DNA of 64,000 nt from Vicinamibacterales bacterium (GTDB taxonomy: Bacteria > Acidobacteriota > Vicinamibacteria > Vicinamibacterales > UBA2999): positions 348 to 64,347 of the forward strand of contig DASTBV010000113.1 of the NCBI GenBank assembly GCA_035711805.1. Reading direction: 5' to 3'. Position numbers and translations under genes: made by a program. The notes below the pieces were generated by a model. That model searched no databases. It was given only the letters and a program-made list of their open reading frames with translations, and was not told where the DNA came from. Below, piece after piece: positions 17,677 through 62,014 of the stretch (its first letter is position 1; each line of letters begins with the position of its first letter).

Positions 17677-17750
17677 ACCTCTTGAACCTCTTGAACCTCT
17701 TGAACCTCTTGAACCTCTTGAACCTTTTGAACCCTTGAACCCCTTGAACC
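17677..17750. repeat. 9-bp tandem array (CTTGAACCT x5 perfect, then about 3 degenerate units)
   Basis: Read directly. Fills the spacer between the rng stop (17753) and the TIGR03435 start (17662). On the mRNA strand it reads (AAGAGGTTC)n. Confidence 0.9.
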
Positions 17751-17752
17751 TT

Positions 17753-22546: not shown

Positions 22547-22620
22547 AACTCCCAACTCCCAACCGCCAACTCCCAACGACCAACTCCAAGTCTTGGGAGT
22601 TGGGAATTGGGACTTGGAGG
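22547..22620. repeat. heptamer micro-repeat palindrome (AACTCCC-type arm / GGGAGTT-type arm)
   Basis: AACTCCC AACTCCC AACCGCC AACTCCC AACGACC AACTCC-aagtctt-GGGAGTT GGGAATT GGGACTT GGAGG. Lies in the mreD|mrdA spacer. Confidence 0.85.
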
Positions 22621-22635
22621 TTATCCAGTGTCACC

Positions 22636-24032: not shown

Positions 24033-24111
24033 CCACGGGCCACGGAGGCGCGAAGGCACGGAGCGGTGAACGCTGATCCTCTGTGTCTCCGTGGCTCCGT
24101 GGCCTGCGTGG
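24033..24111. repeat. CACGGAG/CTCCGTG micro-repeat palindrome, copy 1
   Basis: CCACGGGCCACGGAGGCGCGAAGGCACGGAG-loop-CTCTGTGTCTCCGTGGCTCCGTGGCCTGCGTGG. Lies in the mreB|mreC spacer. Confidence 0.85.
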
Positions 24112-28362: not shown

Positions 28363-28441
28363 GGCATGCAGACTTCGTCAAGGTGACACGGACGGCGATG
28401 AACAGCACGTCGTCGTGTGCGGTGCGGTAGATTGGGGAGCG

Positions 28442-28533
28442 GGGACCAGGGACCAGGGACCAGGGACCAGGGACCAGGGATCAGGGGTCGGGGATCGGGG
28501 ATCAAGTAGAGGCCGACCTTTAGGTCGGCCTTT
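28442..28533. repeat. 9 x 7-bp tandem array (GGGACCA x5, GGGATCA, GGGGTCG, GGGATCG, GGGATCA) followed by a REP hairpin
   Basis: Array 28442-28504. Hairpin AGGCCGACC-ttta-GGTCGGCCT at about 28509-28530. Lies between convergent ppiD-like and CPBP genes; the CPBP stop sits in the hairpin. Confidence 0.9.
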
Positions 28534-29284: not shown

Positions 29285-29330
29285 TCGTCAACGTCTCGAA
29301 CGATTCGCACCACTCGAACGACTCGAACGT

Positions 29331-31829: not shown

Positions 31830-31887
31830 GGAAACCCTGAGGCCTTGGCCCTTGGGCGTTGGCCCTTCGGCCTTCTATGATGGGGGG

Positions 31888-38684: not shown

Positions 38685-38761
38685 GGACGATAGGAATCAT
38701 TAGCCGGGACGATAGGAATCATTAGCCGGGTTTGCGCGCGCCTCGTTGACGGAATGCTGCT
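38685..38761. repeat. copy B of the 55-bp block with an internal 22-bp tandem duplication; candidate ori-like IS91 end
   Basis: ACGATAGGAATCATTAGCCGGG occurs twice in tandem (38687-38708, 38709-38730), then TTTGCGCGCGCCTCGTTGACGGAATGCTGCT. Lies 178-254 nt downstream of the transposase stop. Confidence 0.85.
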
Positions 38762-43915: not shown

Positions 43916-43923
43916 AGGGCAAA

Positions 43924-43961
43924 TTCAGAATTCAGAATGCAGAATTCAGAATTCTGCATTC
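43924..43961. repeat. heptamer array TTCAGAA x4 ending in a perfect 13-bp stem
   Basis: TTCAGAA TTCAGAA TGCAGAA TTCAGAA TTCTGCATTC. GAATGCAGAATTC-a-GAATTCTGCATTC spans 43935-43961 and overlaps the upstream gene's stop. Confidence 0.9.
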
Positions 43962-45207
43962 ATGCCGCCGATCCCGCACGCGTCGGCATGGACGGAACTG
44001 CGGCGCCGCGGGCGGCGCCAAACGGAATCAGCGAGCGGAGCCAGAGCCGGCGCACCGGGGCGGCGGCATTGTCGACCGCCGTACTGAGTGCAACGGTGTC
44101 GGCCTCCCCGGCGCGTCCATATACCGCGGTGCTGAACAGCTGCAGCGCTTCGAGAATGGGCTGCAGGGTCTCCCGCGACGCAGCGCCGCTGCTGGTCTCG
44201 ATCGCGGCCATGAGCGCCGCGGGAGTCGTGGCAGCCGACAGGAGCACGCGCTTGCGCCGCAGCAGTCCGGATCGCACCTCGATCTGCCCGACGCGTCCGG
44301 ACGCGACGTTCGTCACGTGCCGCTGCGCCACGCGGCGGCCGAGCGCTACCGCGCCGGCGATTCGAAGGGCGGCGACAGCTTGGGACATCAGCGCGGGCGT
44401 CCACCCGTCGCGCGCGGCGTCGCTGCGGGCGCTGCGCAGCGCGGCCATCGCGCCGCGCAGCACGGTGGCGGCAGGAAGCGGACGAACAACCTTCGCGCCG
44501 CGCACGCGGAACCGGCCGGCAAGCCGTACCAGCGCCAGAGCGGCCAGCACACCCGCAAACGCGAAGGCAATCGAGGCACCCACGATCGCGGCCGTGGCGC
44601 GGTTGCGCCGCGATTCGACGTTGGCGAACGTCTGGCCCGAGGCGTCGCGGATATCAGCGGCGCTGCGCGGGACGATCGACAGCACCCGCATCGGCAGCGG
44701 CGGCAGCACGTAGGTCTGATCGCGTCCTTCCGAGCTCCCGGTCGTACCCGCGGCCTGCAGGTTGTAGGTGACCGTCAGCGACGGGATGTTGACGTCCTGG
44801 CCGAAGAAGCCCTCGCTCAGCAGGCGCATCGCGTACTCGTACTGGATATACCGCCACGGCGGCGCGACGACATCCTCGTGGCGGTTGCCGGCCACGGCCT
44901 CGAACGGTGTCAGCGAAATCGCACCCGGCTCGAGCTGATTGACCGCCGGCACGACCTTGATGTTCGGCGTTTCGATGACGCCGCAGGTCAACACCAGGGT
45001 GAAGCGCTCGCCGACGCGAATGGCGCTGCGATCCGCTTTCCACCAGCAGCGGATTGGATCCGATTCAACCTCTCCGGGTCGGGGCGCGCGCTTCGTCTGC
45101 GCATGCGTGGGCACCGCGCCGAGGAGGACGACCACGAGGGCGAAGCAGAATCGGTGTCGCATGAGCGTTGGGATTTGGGGTTTGGGATTTGGGATGTGGG
45201 ATTTCAT
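43960..45207 (-). CDS. BatD-like / hypothetical secreted membrane-anchored protein
   Basis: ATG 45207 abuts the DUF58 stop (TAAATG); the alternative start is ATG 45162. Signal peptide ..FCFALVVVLLGAVPTHAQ and one C-proximal TM. The first 15 codons are encoded by an 8-bp repeat. Confidence 0.5.
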   Translation of the reverse strand: MKSHIPNPKPQIPTLMRHRFCFALVVVLLGAVPTHAQTKRAPRPGEVESDPIRCWWKADRSAIRVGERFTLVLTCGVIETPNIKVVPAVNQLEPGAISLTPFEAVAGNRHEDVVAPPWRYIQYEYAMRLLSEGFFGQDVNIPSLTVTYNLQAAGTTGSSEGRDQTYVLPPLPMRVLSIVPRSAADIRDASGQTFANVESRRNRATAAIVGASIAFAFAGVLAALALVRLAGRFRVRGAKVVRPLPAATVLRGAMAALRSARSDAARDGWTPALMSQAVAALRIAGAVALGRRVAQRHVTNVASGRVGQIEVRSGLLRRKRVLLSAATTPAALMAAIETSSGAASRETLQPILEALQLFSTAVYGRAGEADTVALSTAVDNAAAPVRRLWLRSLIPFGAARGAAVPSMPTRAGSAA

Positions 45208-49780: not shown

Positions 49781-49846
49781 GCCACGGAGGCACGGAGACA
49801 CGGATCATTTGAAATCGCTTTCTCCGCGGTTCCGTGTCTCCGTGGC
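49781..49846. repeat. CACGGAG/CTCCGTG micro-repeat palindrome, copy 2
   Basis: GCCACGGAGGCACGGAGACACGGA-tcatttgaaatcgctt-TCTCCGCGGTTCCGTGTCTCCGTGGC. Lies in the adh|mmsA spacer. Confidence 0.9.
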
Positions 49847-54920: not shown

Positions 54921-55904
54921 GTGCGCCCCCTTCTGAAGTGGGCCGGCGGCAAGCGACAGCTGCTCCCCGCGCTCGAGCAGTACTACCCTGCGACCTTTGG
55001 GCGTTATCTCGAGCCCTTCGTCGGCAGCGGCGCGGTGTTCTTTCATCTCGCGTCCACGGGCGTCCTCGACGGCCGCACGGTGATCCTTTCCGACGTCAAC
55101 ACCGATCTGATCGGGTGCTACAGCGTCGTGCGCGACAGGACCGAGGCGGTCATCACGGAGCTGCAGTCGCTCGAACAGGAACACCGTCGCCACGGCGACG
55201 AGTGTTACTACGACGTCCGCGATACCAGATTCAATCCGTGGCGGGCGAAGCTGATGGCCGACAGCGGCGGCGACGGAAAGCTGGCCGCGACGCGGTACTC
55301 CACGGAGCTGGCGGCGATGCTGATCTTCCTGAATCGGACGGGATTCAACGGCCTGTTCCGCCTCAACAGGCTCGGCGAGTTCAACGTCCCCGCCGGCCGC
55401 TACCGTGACCCGCGGATCTGTGATCCGGATCACATCCGGGCGGTTGCGGCGGTGCTGCGGCGTCCCGGCGTGGCGATCGAACACCGCGGGTTCGAAGCGG
55501 CGCTGCGCGACGCGGGCGCTGGCGATTTCGTCTACTGCGACCCGCCGTACGCCCCCGTGAGCCGTACGTCCAGCTTTGCGAACTACACCGCCGCCGGCTT
55601 CGCGTCGCCCGACCAGCAGCGGCTGATGGACGCCGTGATTCGCGCGTGCCGCCGCGGTGCCCGCGTCGTGGTGTCGAATTCCAGCGCGCCGGAGATCGAA
55701 ACCGCGTATCGGACGCGCGCCGCACGGCAGGCCAGGATCGCGGTTCACCGCGTCCCGGCGCGGCGGGCCATTAATTCGCGCGGCTCCAGGCGCGGCCCCG
55801 TGGACGAGTTAATCATTACGAATGTGCCATCTTCGCTGGCCGGGCTCCGGCCGAGGATGCTGAAGGCCCCAGGGCCAAGGCCCAAGGCCCAAGGGCTGGT
55901 CTAG
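54921..55904 (+). CDS. Dam-like N6-adenine DNA methyltransferase, no adjacent nuclease
   Basis: GTG start. (M)RPLLKWAGGKRQLL, EPFVGSGAVFF (SAM site), YCDPPY (motif IV). The C-terminal tail ..APGPRPKAQGLV is encoded by a GGCCCAA-type repeat. Confidence 0.85.
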   Translation: MRPLLKWAGGKRQLLPALEQYYPATFGRYLEPFVGSGAVFFHLASTGVLDGRTVILSDVNTDLIGCYSVVRDRTEAVITELQSLEQEHRRHGDECYYDVRDTRFNPWRAKLMADSGGDGKLAATRYSTELAAMLIFLNRTGFNGLFRLNRLGEFNVPAGRYRDPRICDPDHIRAVAAVLRRPGVAIEHRGFEAALRDAGAGDFVYCDPPYAPVSRTSSFANYTAAGFASPDQQRLMDAVIRACRRGARVVVSNSSAPEIETAYRTRAARQARIAVHRVPARRAINSRGSRRGPVDELIITNVPSSLAGLRPRMLKAPGPRPKAQGLV

Positions 55905-55939: not shown

Positions 55940-56023
55940 GCGAAAGTGGCGGAACTGGCAGACGCGCCAGACTTAGGATCTGGTACCCGAAAGGGTATGG
56001 GGGTTCGAGTCCCTCCTTTCGCA
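55940..56023 (+). tRNA. tRNA-Leu (anticodon TAG), long variable arm, no encoded CCA
   Basis: Acceptor stem GCGAAAG/CTTTCGC plus discriminator A. Anticodon stem-loop CCAGA-CTTAGGA-TCTGG. Variable arm TACCCGAAAGGGTA. T arm GGGGGTTCGAGTCCCTC. Close to E. coli tRNA-Leu in overall pattern. Confidence 0.9.
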
Positions 56024-56040: not shown

Positions 56041-56107
56041 GGCCACGGAGTCGCGGAGACACGGAGGTTCGTAAAGTTCTGGCTCCGTGGCTCCGTGTCT
56101 CCGTGGC
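56041..56107. repeat. CACGGAG/CTCCGTG micro-repeat palindrome, copy 3
   Basis: GGCCACGGAGTCGCGGAGACACGGAG-gttcgtaaagttctgg-CTCCGTGGCTCCGTGTCTCCGTGGC. Lies between tRNA-Leu and tig. Confidence 0.9.
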
Positions 56108-56120
56108 GCAGTGTCCTCCG

Positions 56121-57395
56121 ATGAAAACCGAATTCACCGACGTCAGCGAGACCAAGAAGACCCTCACGATCGAGATCCCGAGCGACATCGTCGACGCGGA
56201 GATCAACAAGGTCGCGAAGGGCTACTCGAAGCAGGCCAAGCTGCCCGGCTTCAGGCCTGGCAAGGTTCCGGCGACGATCGTCAAGCAGCGCTTCAAGGAC
56301 CAGATCCTGCACGACGTGATGCATGGCCTGATTCCTCGTGCGGTCGAGGAGGCGCTGCAGGAGCGCGGCATCGAGCCTGTGGACACCCCCAACATCAAGG
56401 ACGTCGTGCTCGAAGAGGGACAGCCGCTGAAATTCACGGCAGCGGTTGAAACCGTTCCGGCGTTCGATCCCGGCGACCTCGGTACGCTGTCGGCGACGCG
56501 TCCGTCGGCGGCGGTCACCGACGACGCGGTCGAGCAGATGCTGCAACGGCTGCGCGAACGGTCGGCGAAGTTCGAGCCCGTTGAAGGCCGCGCCATCGCC
56601 GAGGGCGACACCGCCGTTCTGGATATCGATCGCAAGGATGCAGACAGCGACGCCGACCGTCATGAGAACGTGTCGATCGAAATCGGCGGGCCGGCGAACC
56701 CGCCGGGCTTCGACGCCAACCTCGTCGGACTCGCGGCCGGAGACGACAAGACCTTCACGATCCACTTCCCCGCTGACTATGCCGTCAAGGAGATGGCCGA
56801 CACCGACGTCATGTACTCCGTCAAGGTCAAGGACGTTCGCCGCAAGGTGCTGCCGGAGCTTGACGATGAGTTTGCAAAGGACCTGGGGGCCTTCGACTCG
56901 CTGGCAGCGTTGCGCGACAAGATCCGCGCGGATCTCGAAGAGGAGGCACGCGAGAGCGCAACTCGACAGGTGCGCTCCACGATCCTGAAGCAGCTGTCCG
57001 ACCGGGTCACCTTCGACCTTCCGACGTCCCTTGTCGAGCGAGAGATCGATCGCCGGCTCGAGGAGTTCGCCCGCCAGTTGATGCAGCAGAACGTGGACCC
57101 GAGGCAGGCCGGCATCGACTGGGCCCAGTTCCGGGAAGCTCAGCGGGATCCGGCGCGGGCGGCCGTCGCCAGCGCCCTGGCGCTGGACGAGATCGCCCGG
57201 CGCGAAAACATTACGGTTGCGGCCGAAGATGTCGATAAGGAGATTGAACGCTTTGCAGCCCGGGCCGGCCGGACGCCGGCGGCGCTGCGCGCGCAGCTGG
57301 AGAAGGAAGGGGGCGTGGCGCGGCTGTATGCCGGGTTACGCCGGGAGAAGGCGGTTGACTTGGCGCTGACGCATGCTACTATCACCGACGAGTAG
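56121..57395 (+). CDS. tig: trigger factor
   Basis: Trimmed to ATG 56121 (MKTEFTDVSETKKTLTIEIP..). ..GFRPGKVP.. ribosome-binding motif. Followed by clpP-clpX. Confidence 0.9.
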   Translation: MKTEFTDVSETKKTLTIEIPSDIVDAEINKVAKGYSKQAKLPGFRPGKVPATIVKQRFKDQILHDVMHGLIPRAVEEALQERGIEPVDTPNIKDVVLEEGQPLKFTAAVETVPAFDPGDLGTLSATRPSAAVTDDAVEQMLQRLRERSAKFEPVEGRAIAEGDTAVLDIDRKDADSDADRHENVSIEIGGPANPPGFDANLVGLAAGDDKTFTIHFPADYAVKEMADTDVMYSVKVKDVRRKVLPELDDEFAKDLGAFDSLAALRDKIRADLEEEARESATRQVRSTILKQLSDRVTFDLPTSLVEREIDRRLEEFARQLMQQNVDPRQAGIDWAQFREAQRDPARAAVASALALDEIARRENITVAAEDVDKEIERFAARAGRTPAALRAQLEKEGGVARLYAGLRREKAVDLALTHATITDE

Positions 57396-58131: not shown

Positions 58132-58189
58132 AAACCGGGTTTAATTTTCGCCTAGGTCCCTCTCCGAAAATTAAACCCGGTTTCTTTTC
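58132..58189 (+). terminator. AT-rich 19-bp perfect stem plus T-rich tail between clpP and clpX (terminator/attenuator)
   Basis: AAACCGGGTTTAATTTTCG (58132-58150) pairs with CGAAAATTAAACCCGGTTT (58165-58183), then CTTTTC. Confidence 0.55.
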
Positions 58190-58192
58190 AGC

Positions 58193-59439
<1,247 letters not shown>

Positions 59440-59440
<1 letters not shown>

Positions 59441-59522
59441 GCCTCAGGGCCCAGGCCTCAGGCCTCAGGGCTGGTCAAGGCCCGAGCCTGCTGAGGCCTG
59501 AGGCCTGAATCCTGAGGCCTTC
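59440..59522. repeat. micro-repeat palindrome with GGCCTCA / CTGAGGC units
   Basis: GGCCTCAGG GCCCAGG CCTCAGG CCTCAGGG..loop..CTGAGGC CTGAGGC CTGAATC CTGAGGCC. Lies in the clpX|lon spacer. Confidence 0.9.
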
Positions 59523-61937: not shown

Positions 61938-62014
61938 GGGCCACGGAGACACGAAGACACGGAGCTTCTGAGTTGTTTCTTCTCCGCGACTCCGTGACTC
62001 CGTGCCTCCGTGGC
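61938..62014. repeat. CACGGAG/CTCCGTG micro-repeat palindrome, copy 4
   Basis: GGGCCACGGAGACACGAAGACACGGAG-cttctgagttgtttct-TCTCCGCGACTCCGTGACTCCGTGCCTCCGTGGC. Lies in the lon|engB spacer. Confidence 0.9.

Follow-up and report, generated by a model that had tools for sequence, protein, structure and literature searches.

What are four palindromes of one design, each built from repeated CACGGAG units, doing in the short intergenic spacers of a Vicinamibacterales bacterium, and where did they come from? The stretch of DNA analysed here (64,000 nucleotides of contig DASTBV010000113.1, hereafter the window, with a G+C content of 66%) had been the subject of an earlier note, made from the sequence alone, which located the four copies and framed them as an RNA end, processing or termination signal of this particular genome. 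Based on genomic and metagenomic comparisons, we now put forward a different reading, to which we give a probability of about 0.6, namely that each palindrome repeats the two terminal arrays of a minigene cassette but lacks its gene, the cassette being widespread, horizontally transmitted and the carrier of a small gene of the GxxExxY family. The four hairpins lie as follows.

24033-24111, no strand assigned: CACGGAG-family hairpin copy 1, in the mreB/mreC spacer of the minus-strand mre operon
24038-24063 and 24079-24104: core arms of copy 1, with decayed units (CCACGGG, CCTGCGTGG) beyond the core
49781-49846, no strand assigned: CACGGAG-family hairpin copy 2, in the Zn-alcohol dehydrogenase/methylmalonate-semialdehyde dehydrogenase spacer
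56041-56107, no strand assigned: CACGGAG-family hairpin copy 3, between tRNA-Leu (55940-56023) and tig (ATG at 56121)
61938-62014, no strand assigned: CACGGAG-family hairpin copy 4, in the lon/engB spacer, with three units in the left arm and four in the right

A pattern that covers all four copies (CCACGGAG-N9-CACGGA-N15-45-CTCCGTGG) matches the window at these places only and 0.00 times in 100 dinucleotide-preserving shuffles, which confirms the positions first reported, and the bare heptamer occurs 31 times in the window against 14.7 expected. As had also been stated, each copy occupies a short spacer between same-strand genes, the pairs encoding MreB and MreC (minus strand), Zn-alcohol dehydrogenase and methylmalonate-semialdehyde dehydrogenase, tRNA-Leu and trigger factor, and Lon and YsxC (EngB); copy 2, for example, lies 20 nt from the upstream stop codon and ends 16 nt short of the downstream ATG. 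The arms of 24–26 nt are 81–88% complementary, form stems of 24–33 bp and consist of 7-nt CACGGAG units with one nucleotide between them. The 8-nt period of the plan described before is thereby upheld and its exact units are not, as a variant occupies a middle or inner position in every copy (CGCGAAG in copy 1, CACGGAT in copy 2, CGCGGAG in copy 3, CACGAAG in copy 4) and the right arm of copy 4 has a fourth unit. Similarly, the loops are indeed unrelated to one another, and their length is 15–25 nt rather than the 14–18 nt claimed. All four copies have the polarity 5'-(CACGGAG)n...(CTCCGTG)n-3' and the ends CCACGGAG/CTCCGTGG, and with slashes marking the outer boundary they read C/CACGGAG...CTCCGTG/G, as do the gene-bearing cassettes described below.

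Folded with RNAfold, the spacer segments reach −45 to −73 kcal/mol. An intrinsic (Rho-independent) terminator was considered and rejected because the loops are longer than the 3–8 nt of such terminators, no T-run lies 3' of any of the four hairpins (the lack of a U-tract had been recognised from the start) and a terminator consensus scan flags 0 of 4. Nor are the hairpins an artefact of assembly, a possibility that the earlier note had raised, because the independent record GCA_025938035.1, 99.8% identical over 4.1 kb, carries the copy 2 hairpin in identical form and in a 94%-identical metagenome contig (L001) the lon/engB hairpin is retained, though one unit shorter and with 6 substitutions in 109 nt. 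The relative L002 lacks copy 3, and there about 10 nt separate the tRNA from the start of tig. Scans of Rfam 15 at gathering and at permissive thresholds returned tRNA-Leu and miRNA-like noise and no family match, and the literal repeat sequence was not found in the searchable literature, where one irrelevant primer was the sole match, in agreement with the earlier note, which did not recognise a named repeat family here.

The family is far from confined to this genome. A scan of one genome per GTDB species with a 22-base pattern, which requires one arm to have three units and the loop not to exceed 45 nt, found at least 115 exact-pattern loci in about 12 phyla. The bacterial carriers among the matches listed belong to the Acidobacteriota (several orders), Planctomycetota, Chloroflexota, Bacteroidota, Verrucomicrobiota, Kiritimatiellota, Lentisphaerota, Myxococcota (a complete Sorangium genome), Gammaproteobacteria (Endozoicomonas isolates), Gemmatimonadota and Binatia, and an archaeal carrier is Methanoperedens. 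The 119 copies among these listed matches share a common plan, in which an outer stem is followed by CCACGGAG-N-CACGGAG-N-CACGGAG, a free loop (median 18 nt) and the mirror arm, and the short outer stem is typical of the lineage (TCA...TGA, ACGGG...CCCGT, TAA...TTA or TTG...CAA). The ACGGG...CCCGT stem of the window is the type of Vicinamibacterales metagenome-assembled genomes, one of which has its hairpin at mreB/mreC, and this places the window probably in the same part of the Acidobacteriota. By the calls of a crude self-trained gene caller, validated on the window, 85 copies have a classifiable context, with 59 between co-oriented, 16 between convergent and 10 between divergent genes; where the genes are co-oriented, the hairpin starts a median of 17–20 nt past the upstream stop codon. 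We considered a phage or plasmid as the vehicle and rejected it, as the family is rare on both (5 matches in 2.9 M viral contigs, 2 weak matches on plasmids). In Endozoicomonas (L062, L070 with two copies, L111 and L115) the CACGGAG hairpin sits in the centre of an element of about 150 bp that resembles a miniature inverted-repeat transposable element (MITE), with terminal inverted repeats of about 25 bp (GGAACTGTCCTGAAATAACTTCCTC...GAGGAAGTTATTCAGGGACAATTCC) and an asymmetric internal segment that occurs in both orientations; the Endozoicomonas locus L066 has the bare hairpin without this surround.

Is it the helix or the sequence of the unit that is kept over such distances? Among 79 copies with three units per arm, unit positions C1, A2, C3, G5, A6 and G7 are near-invariant and G4 is the softest, while both arms, each followed in its own direction, have a purine at the spacer independently of one another. 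No covariation was found between the arms of these 79 copies, observed and expected agreement being 0.46/0.41 and 0.38/0.35 at the spacers and 0.56/0.52 at the variable G4. In the 59 copies between co-oriented genes the sense strand folds no better than the antisense strand (−47.2 vs −46.8 kcal/mol, p = 0.42), and on the transcribed strand there is no excess of G·U over A·C, either overall (64 vs 65) or at the unit positions (34 vs 31). Polarity, by comparison, is nearly fixed, since in an unbiased sample the inverted partner lies downstream of the CACGGAG array in 35 cases and upstream in 2, both exceptions falling in one tandem duplication. What is conserved is thus the sequence of the unit and not the helix, because selection for stability would give compensation, tolerance of G·U and both polarities, and none of the three is seen. 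A structured RNA of the Rfam type, selected for its pairing, was therefore rejected for the absence of covariation, the parity of G·U with A·C and the lack of an Rfam match. A Shine-Dalgarno or anti-Shine-Dalgarno role of GGAG/CTCC was also set aside as no more than an idea, given that the last unit lies at too variable a distance from the ATG and that Bacteroidota carry the element.

A clue to the origin of the arms is a gene that they enclose at other loci. In L166 inverted arrays flank a 444-bp interior that encodes a 124-aa protein, which belongs to TIGR04256 (GxxExxY protein, E = 4e-43) and Pfam PF13366 (PDDEXK_3, E = 9e-41), and arrays likewise bracket a second GxxExxY gene (L208), which is 53% identical and runs in the opposite direction. 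Homologues at 67–80% identity in Brocadia, Methanoperedens, Blastocatellia, Nitrospirota and Dehalococcoidia are all bracketed by arrays, each as a single small gene between unrelated housekeeping genes. Distant homologues on annotated replicons (38–54% protein identity) are organised alike, their units shifting with base composition, such as CACAGAG in Bernardetia, a 9-nt period of CACAGAGG/CGCAGAGG/CACGGAG in Bacteroides and CGCGAAG in Sphingomonas, where the order is fabD, GxxExxY, fabG; in Gemmatirosa a CGCAGAGG hairpin adjoins a frameshifted GxxExxY gene. By inspection, 12 of 13 independent GxxExxY loci, from about nine bacterial phyla plus an archaeon, are bracketed. Ordinary genes from hairpin-rich loci (549) served as controls for automatic detection: a strict generic bracket detector found 4 of 17 known cassettes and 0 of the 549, and because it recognised so few cassettes it was replaced by a family-specific one, which finds 7 of the 13 GxxExxY genes and 1 of the 549 (Fisher p = 4e-12).

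The full cassette of about 0.45–0.5 kb consists of (CRCGRAG + 1–2 nt) x2–5, a short linker, the GxxExxY/PDDEXK_3 gene of about 125 aa, a second short linker and the inverted array, and it sits in short spacers that are mostly between co-oriented host genes. When seven cassettes from at least five phyla are aligned with their flanks, the homology begins at ...CAC/CACGGAG and ends at CTCCGTG/GTG..., and the flanks beyond are unrelated. Since homology starts and stops at their outer edges, the unit that different phyla have in common is one that ends in the arrays. The window copies and the cassettes draw on one set of units (CACGGAG, CGCGAAG, CGCGGAG and CACGAAG), and neither tblastn nor a profile search found GxxExxY sequence in the 64-kb window; with their 15–25-nt loops and no such sequence, the window copies are gene-less derivatives or targets and not full cassettes. 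The framing of the palindromes as a genome-specific RNA signal is accordingly not borne out, as the family crosses phyla, its unit rather than its pairing is conserved and its arms are elsewhere the termini of GxxExxY cassettes. Just 3' of the Nitrospirota cassette (L253, about 2000–2090) lies a second hairpin with GAATTAC/AATTCCT units, of which AATTCCT is also the unit on either side of a four-helix-bundle gene in L285 (Chloroflexota).

In the GxxExxY protein itself the E of the eponymous motif, a D and an ExK are invariant or nearly so and are followed by a QxxxY-like AQLLTYL segment; the L166 copy has G in place of the ExK glutamate. An AlphaFold2 model (pLDDT 95.6) has as its nearest solved folds Cas4 (4ic1, 4r5q), lambda exonuclease and alkaline exonuclease, and a sequence search of the PDB with GxxExxY gave no match. 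We predict from the model that the protein is a minimal RecB/Cas4-type PD-(D/E)XK core, of a class that acts on DNA ends. PF13366/TIGR04256 is a large family (23,636 clusters at 50% identity, E <= 1e-3), and a literature search found no publication that links it to flanking repeats. Many of the best-scoring representatives (P0241-P0253 and others) are about 270–295 aa long with two matched stretches, and these could be either tandem two-domain proteins or the read-through of adjacent cassettes. Gene callers do translate through the arrays, which gives false N-terminal extensions of the type ...TQRHRGTE... (from CACAGAGGCACGGAG; P0001, P0113, P0114 and P0120 are affected), a false C-terminal extension of the Sphingomonas GxxExxY coding sequence and a spurious 38-aa open reading frame (ORF) over a hairpin. 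Two examples of such read-through are the following.

L263, 1560-1617: array read-through
L267, 2532-2648: array read-through

How the short hairpins relate to the cassettes was approached with an array-only probe (CACGGAG-N-CACGGAG-N-CACGGAG) run against metagenomes. An inverted partner lies within 75 nt for only about one quarter of the arrays, and the distance to the next inverted array forms a smooth continuum from 11 to 398 bp, the few larger values spanning ordinary genes. The interiors are mutually unrelated, and many are nested inverted arrays of other units, as in the 'Russian-doll' palindromes L174 953-1368, L133 1743-2051 and L193 3049-3197, whose CACGGAG outer arms surround inverted arrays of GGGAACGAC, CACGAAGGAA, a CACGGAA variant and GATTGTTGA. 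Long plain CACGGAG arrays also exist (L152, L143). Gene-less forms exceed gene-bearing ones by roughly 50–100 to 1; no GxxExxY fragments adjoin any array and no gene remnants lie within the gene-less forms, so the gene-less copies are not recent deletion remnants and that origin was rejected. A search of the intervals between paired copies for a transposase or RAYT found ordinary genes only (mreB, MarR, glyoxalase, murD and others). With respect to what defines a MITE, inverted termini were seen, no target-site duplication was, and the gene-bearing partner encodes a protein that is not a known transposase.

At the mreB/mreC slot the state of the spacer varies while the encoded MreB stays the same. 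In five contigs whose MreB is identical to that of the window the spacer is empty (18–21 nt, no hairpin), and these include the closest relative, at 93.6% DNA identity. Other states with identical MreB are the CACGGAG hairpin of the window, a decayed CGCGGAG/CGCAGAG array (L267) and, in L269-L271 (about 2527-2620), a hairpin of unrelated units (ACGAATTG/AATTCGTA) that fills the spacer from the stop codon to a few nucleotides before the mreC ATG. Because empty, CACGGAG, decayed and other-unit states coexist with identical MreB, the slot has been colonised repeatedly and independently. Once in place, the hairpins change slowly. Between the window and L001 two hairpin spacers (clpX/lon, which holds a hairpin of other units described below, and lon/engB), on which the estimate of constraint is based, differ by 7.7% and 5.5% (13/200 nt = 6.5%) with loops and flanks included, and besides these substitutions show one whole-unit deletion. 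For the same pair of sequences the difference is 20.3% at four-fold degenerate sites (n = 720) and 17.5%, with seven indels, in the hairpin-free tig/clpP spacer. So few changes at the four-fold rate have P = 4e-8, the hairpin spacers evolving about three times more slowly.

From these observations, each read directly from the sequences (termini shared between hairpins and cassettes, homology bounded by the array edges, spread across phyla, insertion polymorphism, conservation of sequence and constraint after insertion), we propose the following mechanism. The gene-less hairpins would multiply as non-autonomous, MITE-like derivatives of the cassette or, alternatively, would act as dispersed landing pads, whose repeated arms provide the homology for a gene copying that is stimulated by the nuclease. 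In either case the Cas4/RecB-like GxxExxY protein would recognise or process the arrays. In the transcript of an operon the stem of 24–33 bp might behave like that of an intervening sequence (IVS) in 23S rRNA and be cut by a double-strand RNase such as RNase III, which would punctuate the polycistronic RNA without the stem being an intrinsic terminator. Such a role of the hairpins in RNA, whether co-opted or a by-product, is possible because the hairpin spacers are constrained.

Several findings weigh against the derivation of the window copies from a GxxExxY cassette. The window has no GxxExxY gene, which makes a local source of the enzyme hypothetical. The nuclease role of the protein is a prediction, and the solved folds nearest to the model match it weakly (E about 1e-3, TM about 0.4–0.5). 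Neither a target-site duplication nor a clean insertion junction was found at mreB/mreC, where filled and empty states were compared, or at the edges of the cassettes. In the unbiased sample about one third of the arrays have no partner in the available DNA. The set of GxxExxY loci is small (13), and 7 of the 13 come from one subfamily at >=67% identity; moreover, at the gene of Treponema the inverted repeat is reduced to one unit per side (CACACGGATTCG...CGAATCCGTGT) and that of Prevotella, the sole exception by inspection, has direct ACAAATC arrays. Finally, the threefold slower change of the hairpin spacers, loops included, suggests a function at the level of the host, or a self-maintaining one, which our proposal leaves unspecified.

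Four alternatives were weighed. The relation between gene and repeat might be the reverse of that proposed, the array hairpins being a primary and self-standing repeat into whose loops the GxxExxY genes home as secondary guests. That would fit the continuum of unrelated loops and interiors and the nested hairpins of other units, which look as if the loops were hot-spots of insertion, as well as the lack of gene remnants in gene-less interiors, the large excess of gene-less forms and the carriage of the hairpin inside the unrelated Endozoicomonas MITE. However, it leaves unexplained why a bare hairpin should keep a constant 7-mer over a dozen phyla, and the homology of the cassettes across phyla spans the arrays and ends at their outer edge, so that gene and arrays travel together. 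On present data it makes nearly the same predictions as the derivation of the hairpins from a cassette, and we judge it to be on the unlikely side while taking it seriously. Evolution in place under host selection, as an RNA element that terminates or attenuates without a U-tract, stabilises 3' ends or marks a processing site for operon transcripts and whose similarity to sequences elsewhere is incidental, would account for the median position of 17–20 nt past the stop codon, the 59 of 85 copies between co-oriented genes, the very stable folds and the threefold conservation, loop included, over four-fold sites and the hairpin-free spacer. We nevertheless consider it improbable, as compensatory covariation, a G·U preference on the transcribed strand and a T-run are all lacking, the single polarity is not needed for the stability of a stem, mreB/mreC is empty in strains with identical MreB, and the CACGGAG unit is found across phyla and brackets a gene.

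Local replication slippage or template switching could likewise generate simple-sequence repeats that have neither mobility nor a link to a gene, in the manner of the cyanobacterial STRR or the Xanthomonas GGGAATC repeats. The number of units does vary between close relatives, many unrelated unit families and plain arrays occur in the window, long plain CACGGAG arrays exist (L152, L143) and inverted heptamer arrays between aligned ORFs have been published (PMC4692102), but slippage would not be expected to converge on one 7-mer, one outer boundary (CAC/CACGGAG) and one polarity in about 12 phyla plus an archaeon, and it does not explain the bracketing of GxxExxY genes; we find it very hard to accept as the origin. 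The arrays could also be operators in double-stranded DNA to which a multimeric, sequence-specific protein of the ribbon-helix-helix kind binds, as conservation of the sequence itself, an 8-bp periodicity and the presence of both orientations would allow, and the ribbon-helix-helix repressors MetJ and omega bind tandem operator sites of 7–8 bp. Yet the sites lie past stop codons within operons and not at promoters, the flanking genes have no functional coherence, the density of the arrays would mean hundreds of sites per genome and no candidate regulator was seen, which makes this the least credible of the explanations considered. The derivation of the palindromes from the termini of GxxExxY cassettes is hence the reading that we retain.

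The CACGGAG copies are not the only repeats of their kind in the window. The count of four is right for this family, and two hairpins of the same architectural class with other units, as well as about seven plain (non-hairpin) tandem arrays of 7–9 nt in short spacers, are to be added to it.

22547-22622, no strand assigned: hairpin of the same architectural class, AACTCCC/TTGGGAG units, mreD/mrdA spacer
59439-59520, no strand assigned: hairpin of the same architectural class, GGCCTCA/TGAGGCC units, clpX/lon spacer
17677-17751: plain tandem array, ACCTCTTGA x8
28435-28504: plain tandem array, GGGACCA x10
29290-29329: plain tandem array, AACGACTCG x4
31841-31874: plain tandem array, GGCCTTG x5
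43922-43962: plain tandem array, AATTCAG x6, self-complementary via GAATTC
45168-45204: plain tandem array, TTGGGAT x5
55863-55894: plain tandem array, AAGGCCC x4.6

The clpX/lon hairpin is conserved in L001 (7 substitutions in 91 nt), and the same slot of L002 holds unrelated hairpins. The hairpin at 22547-22622 has units similar to those of a gene-bearing cassette in L080 (GAGTTGG vs GAGTTAG), but it has the C-rich arm on the 5' side, the reverse of the polarity that gene-bearing cassettes have elsewhere; for this reason a tie to L080 was rejected and no link is claimed. G-rich arrays of the window such as GGGACCA x10 and TTGGGAT x5 resemble the GGGNATC G-quadruplex class, for which these two would qualify, and AATTCAG and GGGATTT units reappear as hairpins in other Acidobacteriota loci (L088, L052). 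Between clpP and clpX, at 58132-58183, an AT-rich perfect 19-bp hairpin (AAACCGGGTTTAATTTTCG...CGAAAATTAAACCCGGTTT) is followed by CTTTTC; it is an insertion, given that the spacer measures only 24–26 nt in L001 and L002, and it looks like a classical terminator or attenuator with a base composition foreign to this genome. A perfect 22-nt direct repeat (GGACGATAGGAATCATTAGCCG, x2.1) in the spacer at 38685-38730 is unrelated to the 7–9-nt arrays.

Other units bracket other genes. A generic scan found inverted GAGTTAG/CTAACTC arrays in an Anaerolineales genome around a 142-aa ORF, the product of which is a TIGR02436 four-helix-bundle protein (Pfam PF05635, '23S rRNA IVS protein'), and three more PF05635 subfamilies are bracketed by inverted 7-nt arrays of AAGATAC x13–17, GGTGATA/CCTATC and AGGAATT/AATTCCT. 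All four subfamilies sampled are thus bracketed, each with a different unit and always between co-oriented host genes, and the AAGATAC array differs by about four units between two assemblies that encode an identical protein. In one Chloroflexota slot, between a fadB-like gene and a thiolase gene (L276 vs L277, and L285), AAGATAC and AGGAATT units accompany four-helix-bundle proteins that are 54% identical. We tentatively suggest, while thinking it more doubtful than probable, that inverted-array bookends mark an unrecognised class of mobile minigenes, in which GxxExxY and Avd-like four-helix-bundle genes have spread across phyla and to Archaea, in operon spacers and, as IVSs, in rRNA, with the heptamer and octamer repeats as their gene-less derivatives or landing pads. 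This speculative extension might take in STRR, TAACTGA and GGGAATC as well as the six hairpins and seven arrays of the window, the arrays being the substrate of recognition or recombination.

Tandem intergenic repeats of 7–8 nt have been on record for cyanobacteria since 1990, and Xanthomonas, Beggiatoaceae and Bacteroidetes were added later. Such repeats form one of three items of unknown function that the present results tie together, the others being PF13366/TIGR04256 and the '23S IVS protein' PF05635, and, if arrays are indeed the termini or targets of minigenes, the puzzle of heptamers shared between phyla could be tested with one protein and one oligonucleotide. There are also consequences for annotation, as read-through of arrays yields false extensions and spurious small ORFs, and for gene expression, as hundreds of hairpins per genome lie within essential operons (mre, clp-lon) and may cut or punctuate polycistronic RNAs.

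Among described systems the closest architecture, by analogy, is that of the ORF-bearing IVS of 23S rRNA. ORF-less IVSs in the form of short stem-loops occur in other bacteria. The IVS in helix 45 of Coxiella burnetii has a length of 428–444 nt; its 28-bp terminal stem closes a loop that holds an S23p ORF, RNase III excises the element, and its acquisition was horizontal (PMC4990558). The CACGGAG cassette resembles this element of about 0.43 kb in that terminal inverted repeats, with stems of 24–33 bp against some 28 bp in Coxiella, surround a small ORF, and in being sporadic and horizontally acquired; furthermore, the S23p/PF05635 family of the IVS is here found bracketed by inverted arrays as well. 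The differences are that the elements of the window lie in mRNA operon spacers and 3' of a tRNA and none in an rRNA helix, that the termini are tandem arrays of 7–8-nt units, and that the ORF of the CACGGAG family is GxxExxY/PF13366. Excision by RNase III is established for the IVS, and we infer it for the CACGGAG hairpins.

The heptamer arrays are the second relative. Arrays of GGGNATC in Xanthomonas and Nostoc, with 70–75 inverted convergent pairs per Xanthomonas genome, lie between aligned ORFs (PMC4692102), and the TAACTGA heptamer is common to Beggiatoaceae, Cyanobacteria and Bacteroidetes with 'no mechanism evident' (PMC4679880), so that, with inverted heptamer pairs and TAACTGA already described, the class of architecture has a precedent. 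The CACGGAG arrays share with these and with STRR the tandem units of the 7-nt class, the non-coding nature, the variable copy number, the bias towards spacers that separate aligned ORFs and towards sites no more than about 50 bp from a stop or start, and the recurrence of one heptamer in distant phyla. Their unit is instead 7+1 nt, inverted pairs are common (about one quarter of arrays), and, because the unit has no G3 tract where the G-quadruplex class needs at least four tracts of G3 or longer, they form no G-quadruplex. In addition, they bracket a defined gene family, and the heptamer papers report no associated gene.

Like REP/REPIN-RAYT systems and MITEs, the CACGGAG hairpins are short, abundant extragenic palindromes that follow genes within operons, are present or absent between strains and share their termini, in many gene-less forms, with a gene-bearing one. 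Unlike the lineage-specific REP sequences, the family spans about 12 phyla and has no RAYT or transposase between paired copies, and it differs from REP and MITE alike in that no target-site duplication was seen, the arms are internally tandem and the protein is a predicted minimal PD-(D/E)XK nuclease. Homing endonuclease genes, which are free-standing or intron-borne, include PD-(D/E)XK types and normally have one conserved host target. They are comparable in that a small nuclease-like gene is found patchily across phyla between conserved host genes, with empty and filled alleles, but the flanking homology would here be a dispersed repeat. 'Multiple transfers, mixed clades' has been the description of a small nuclease gene family (PMC3424549). 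Set against all these systems, what appears to be new is the CACGGAG member itself, its breadth and fixed polarity and, most notably, its role as the bookends of GxxExxY genes and the use of other units as the bookends of four-helix-bundle genes.

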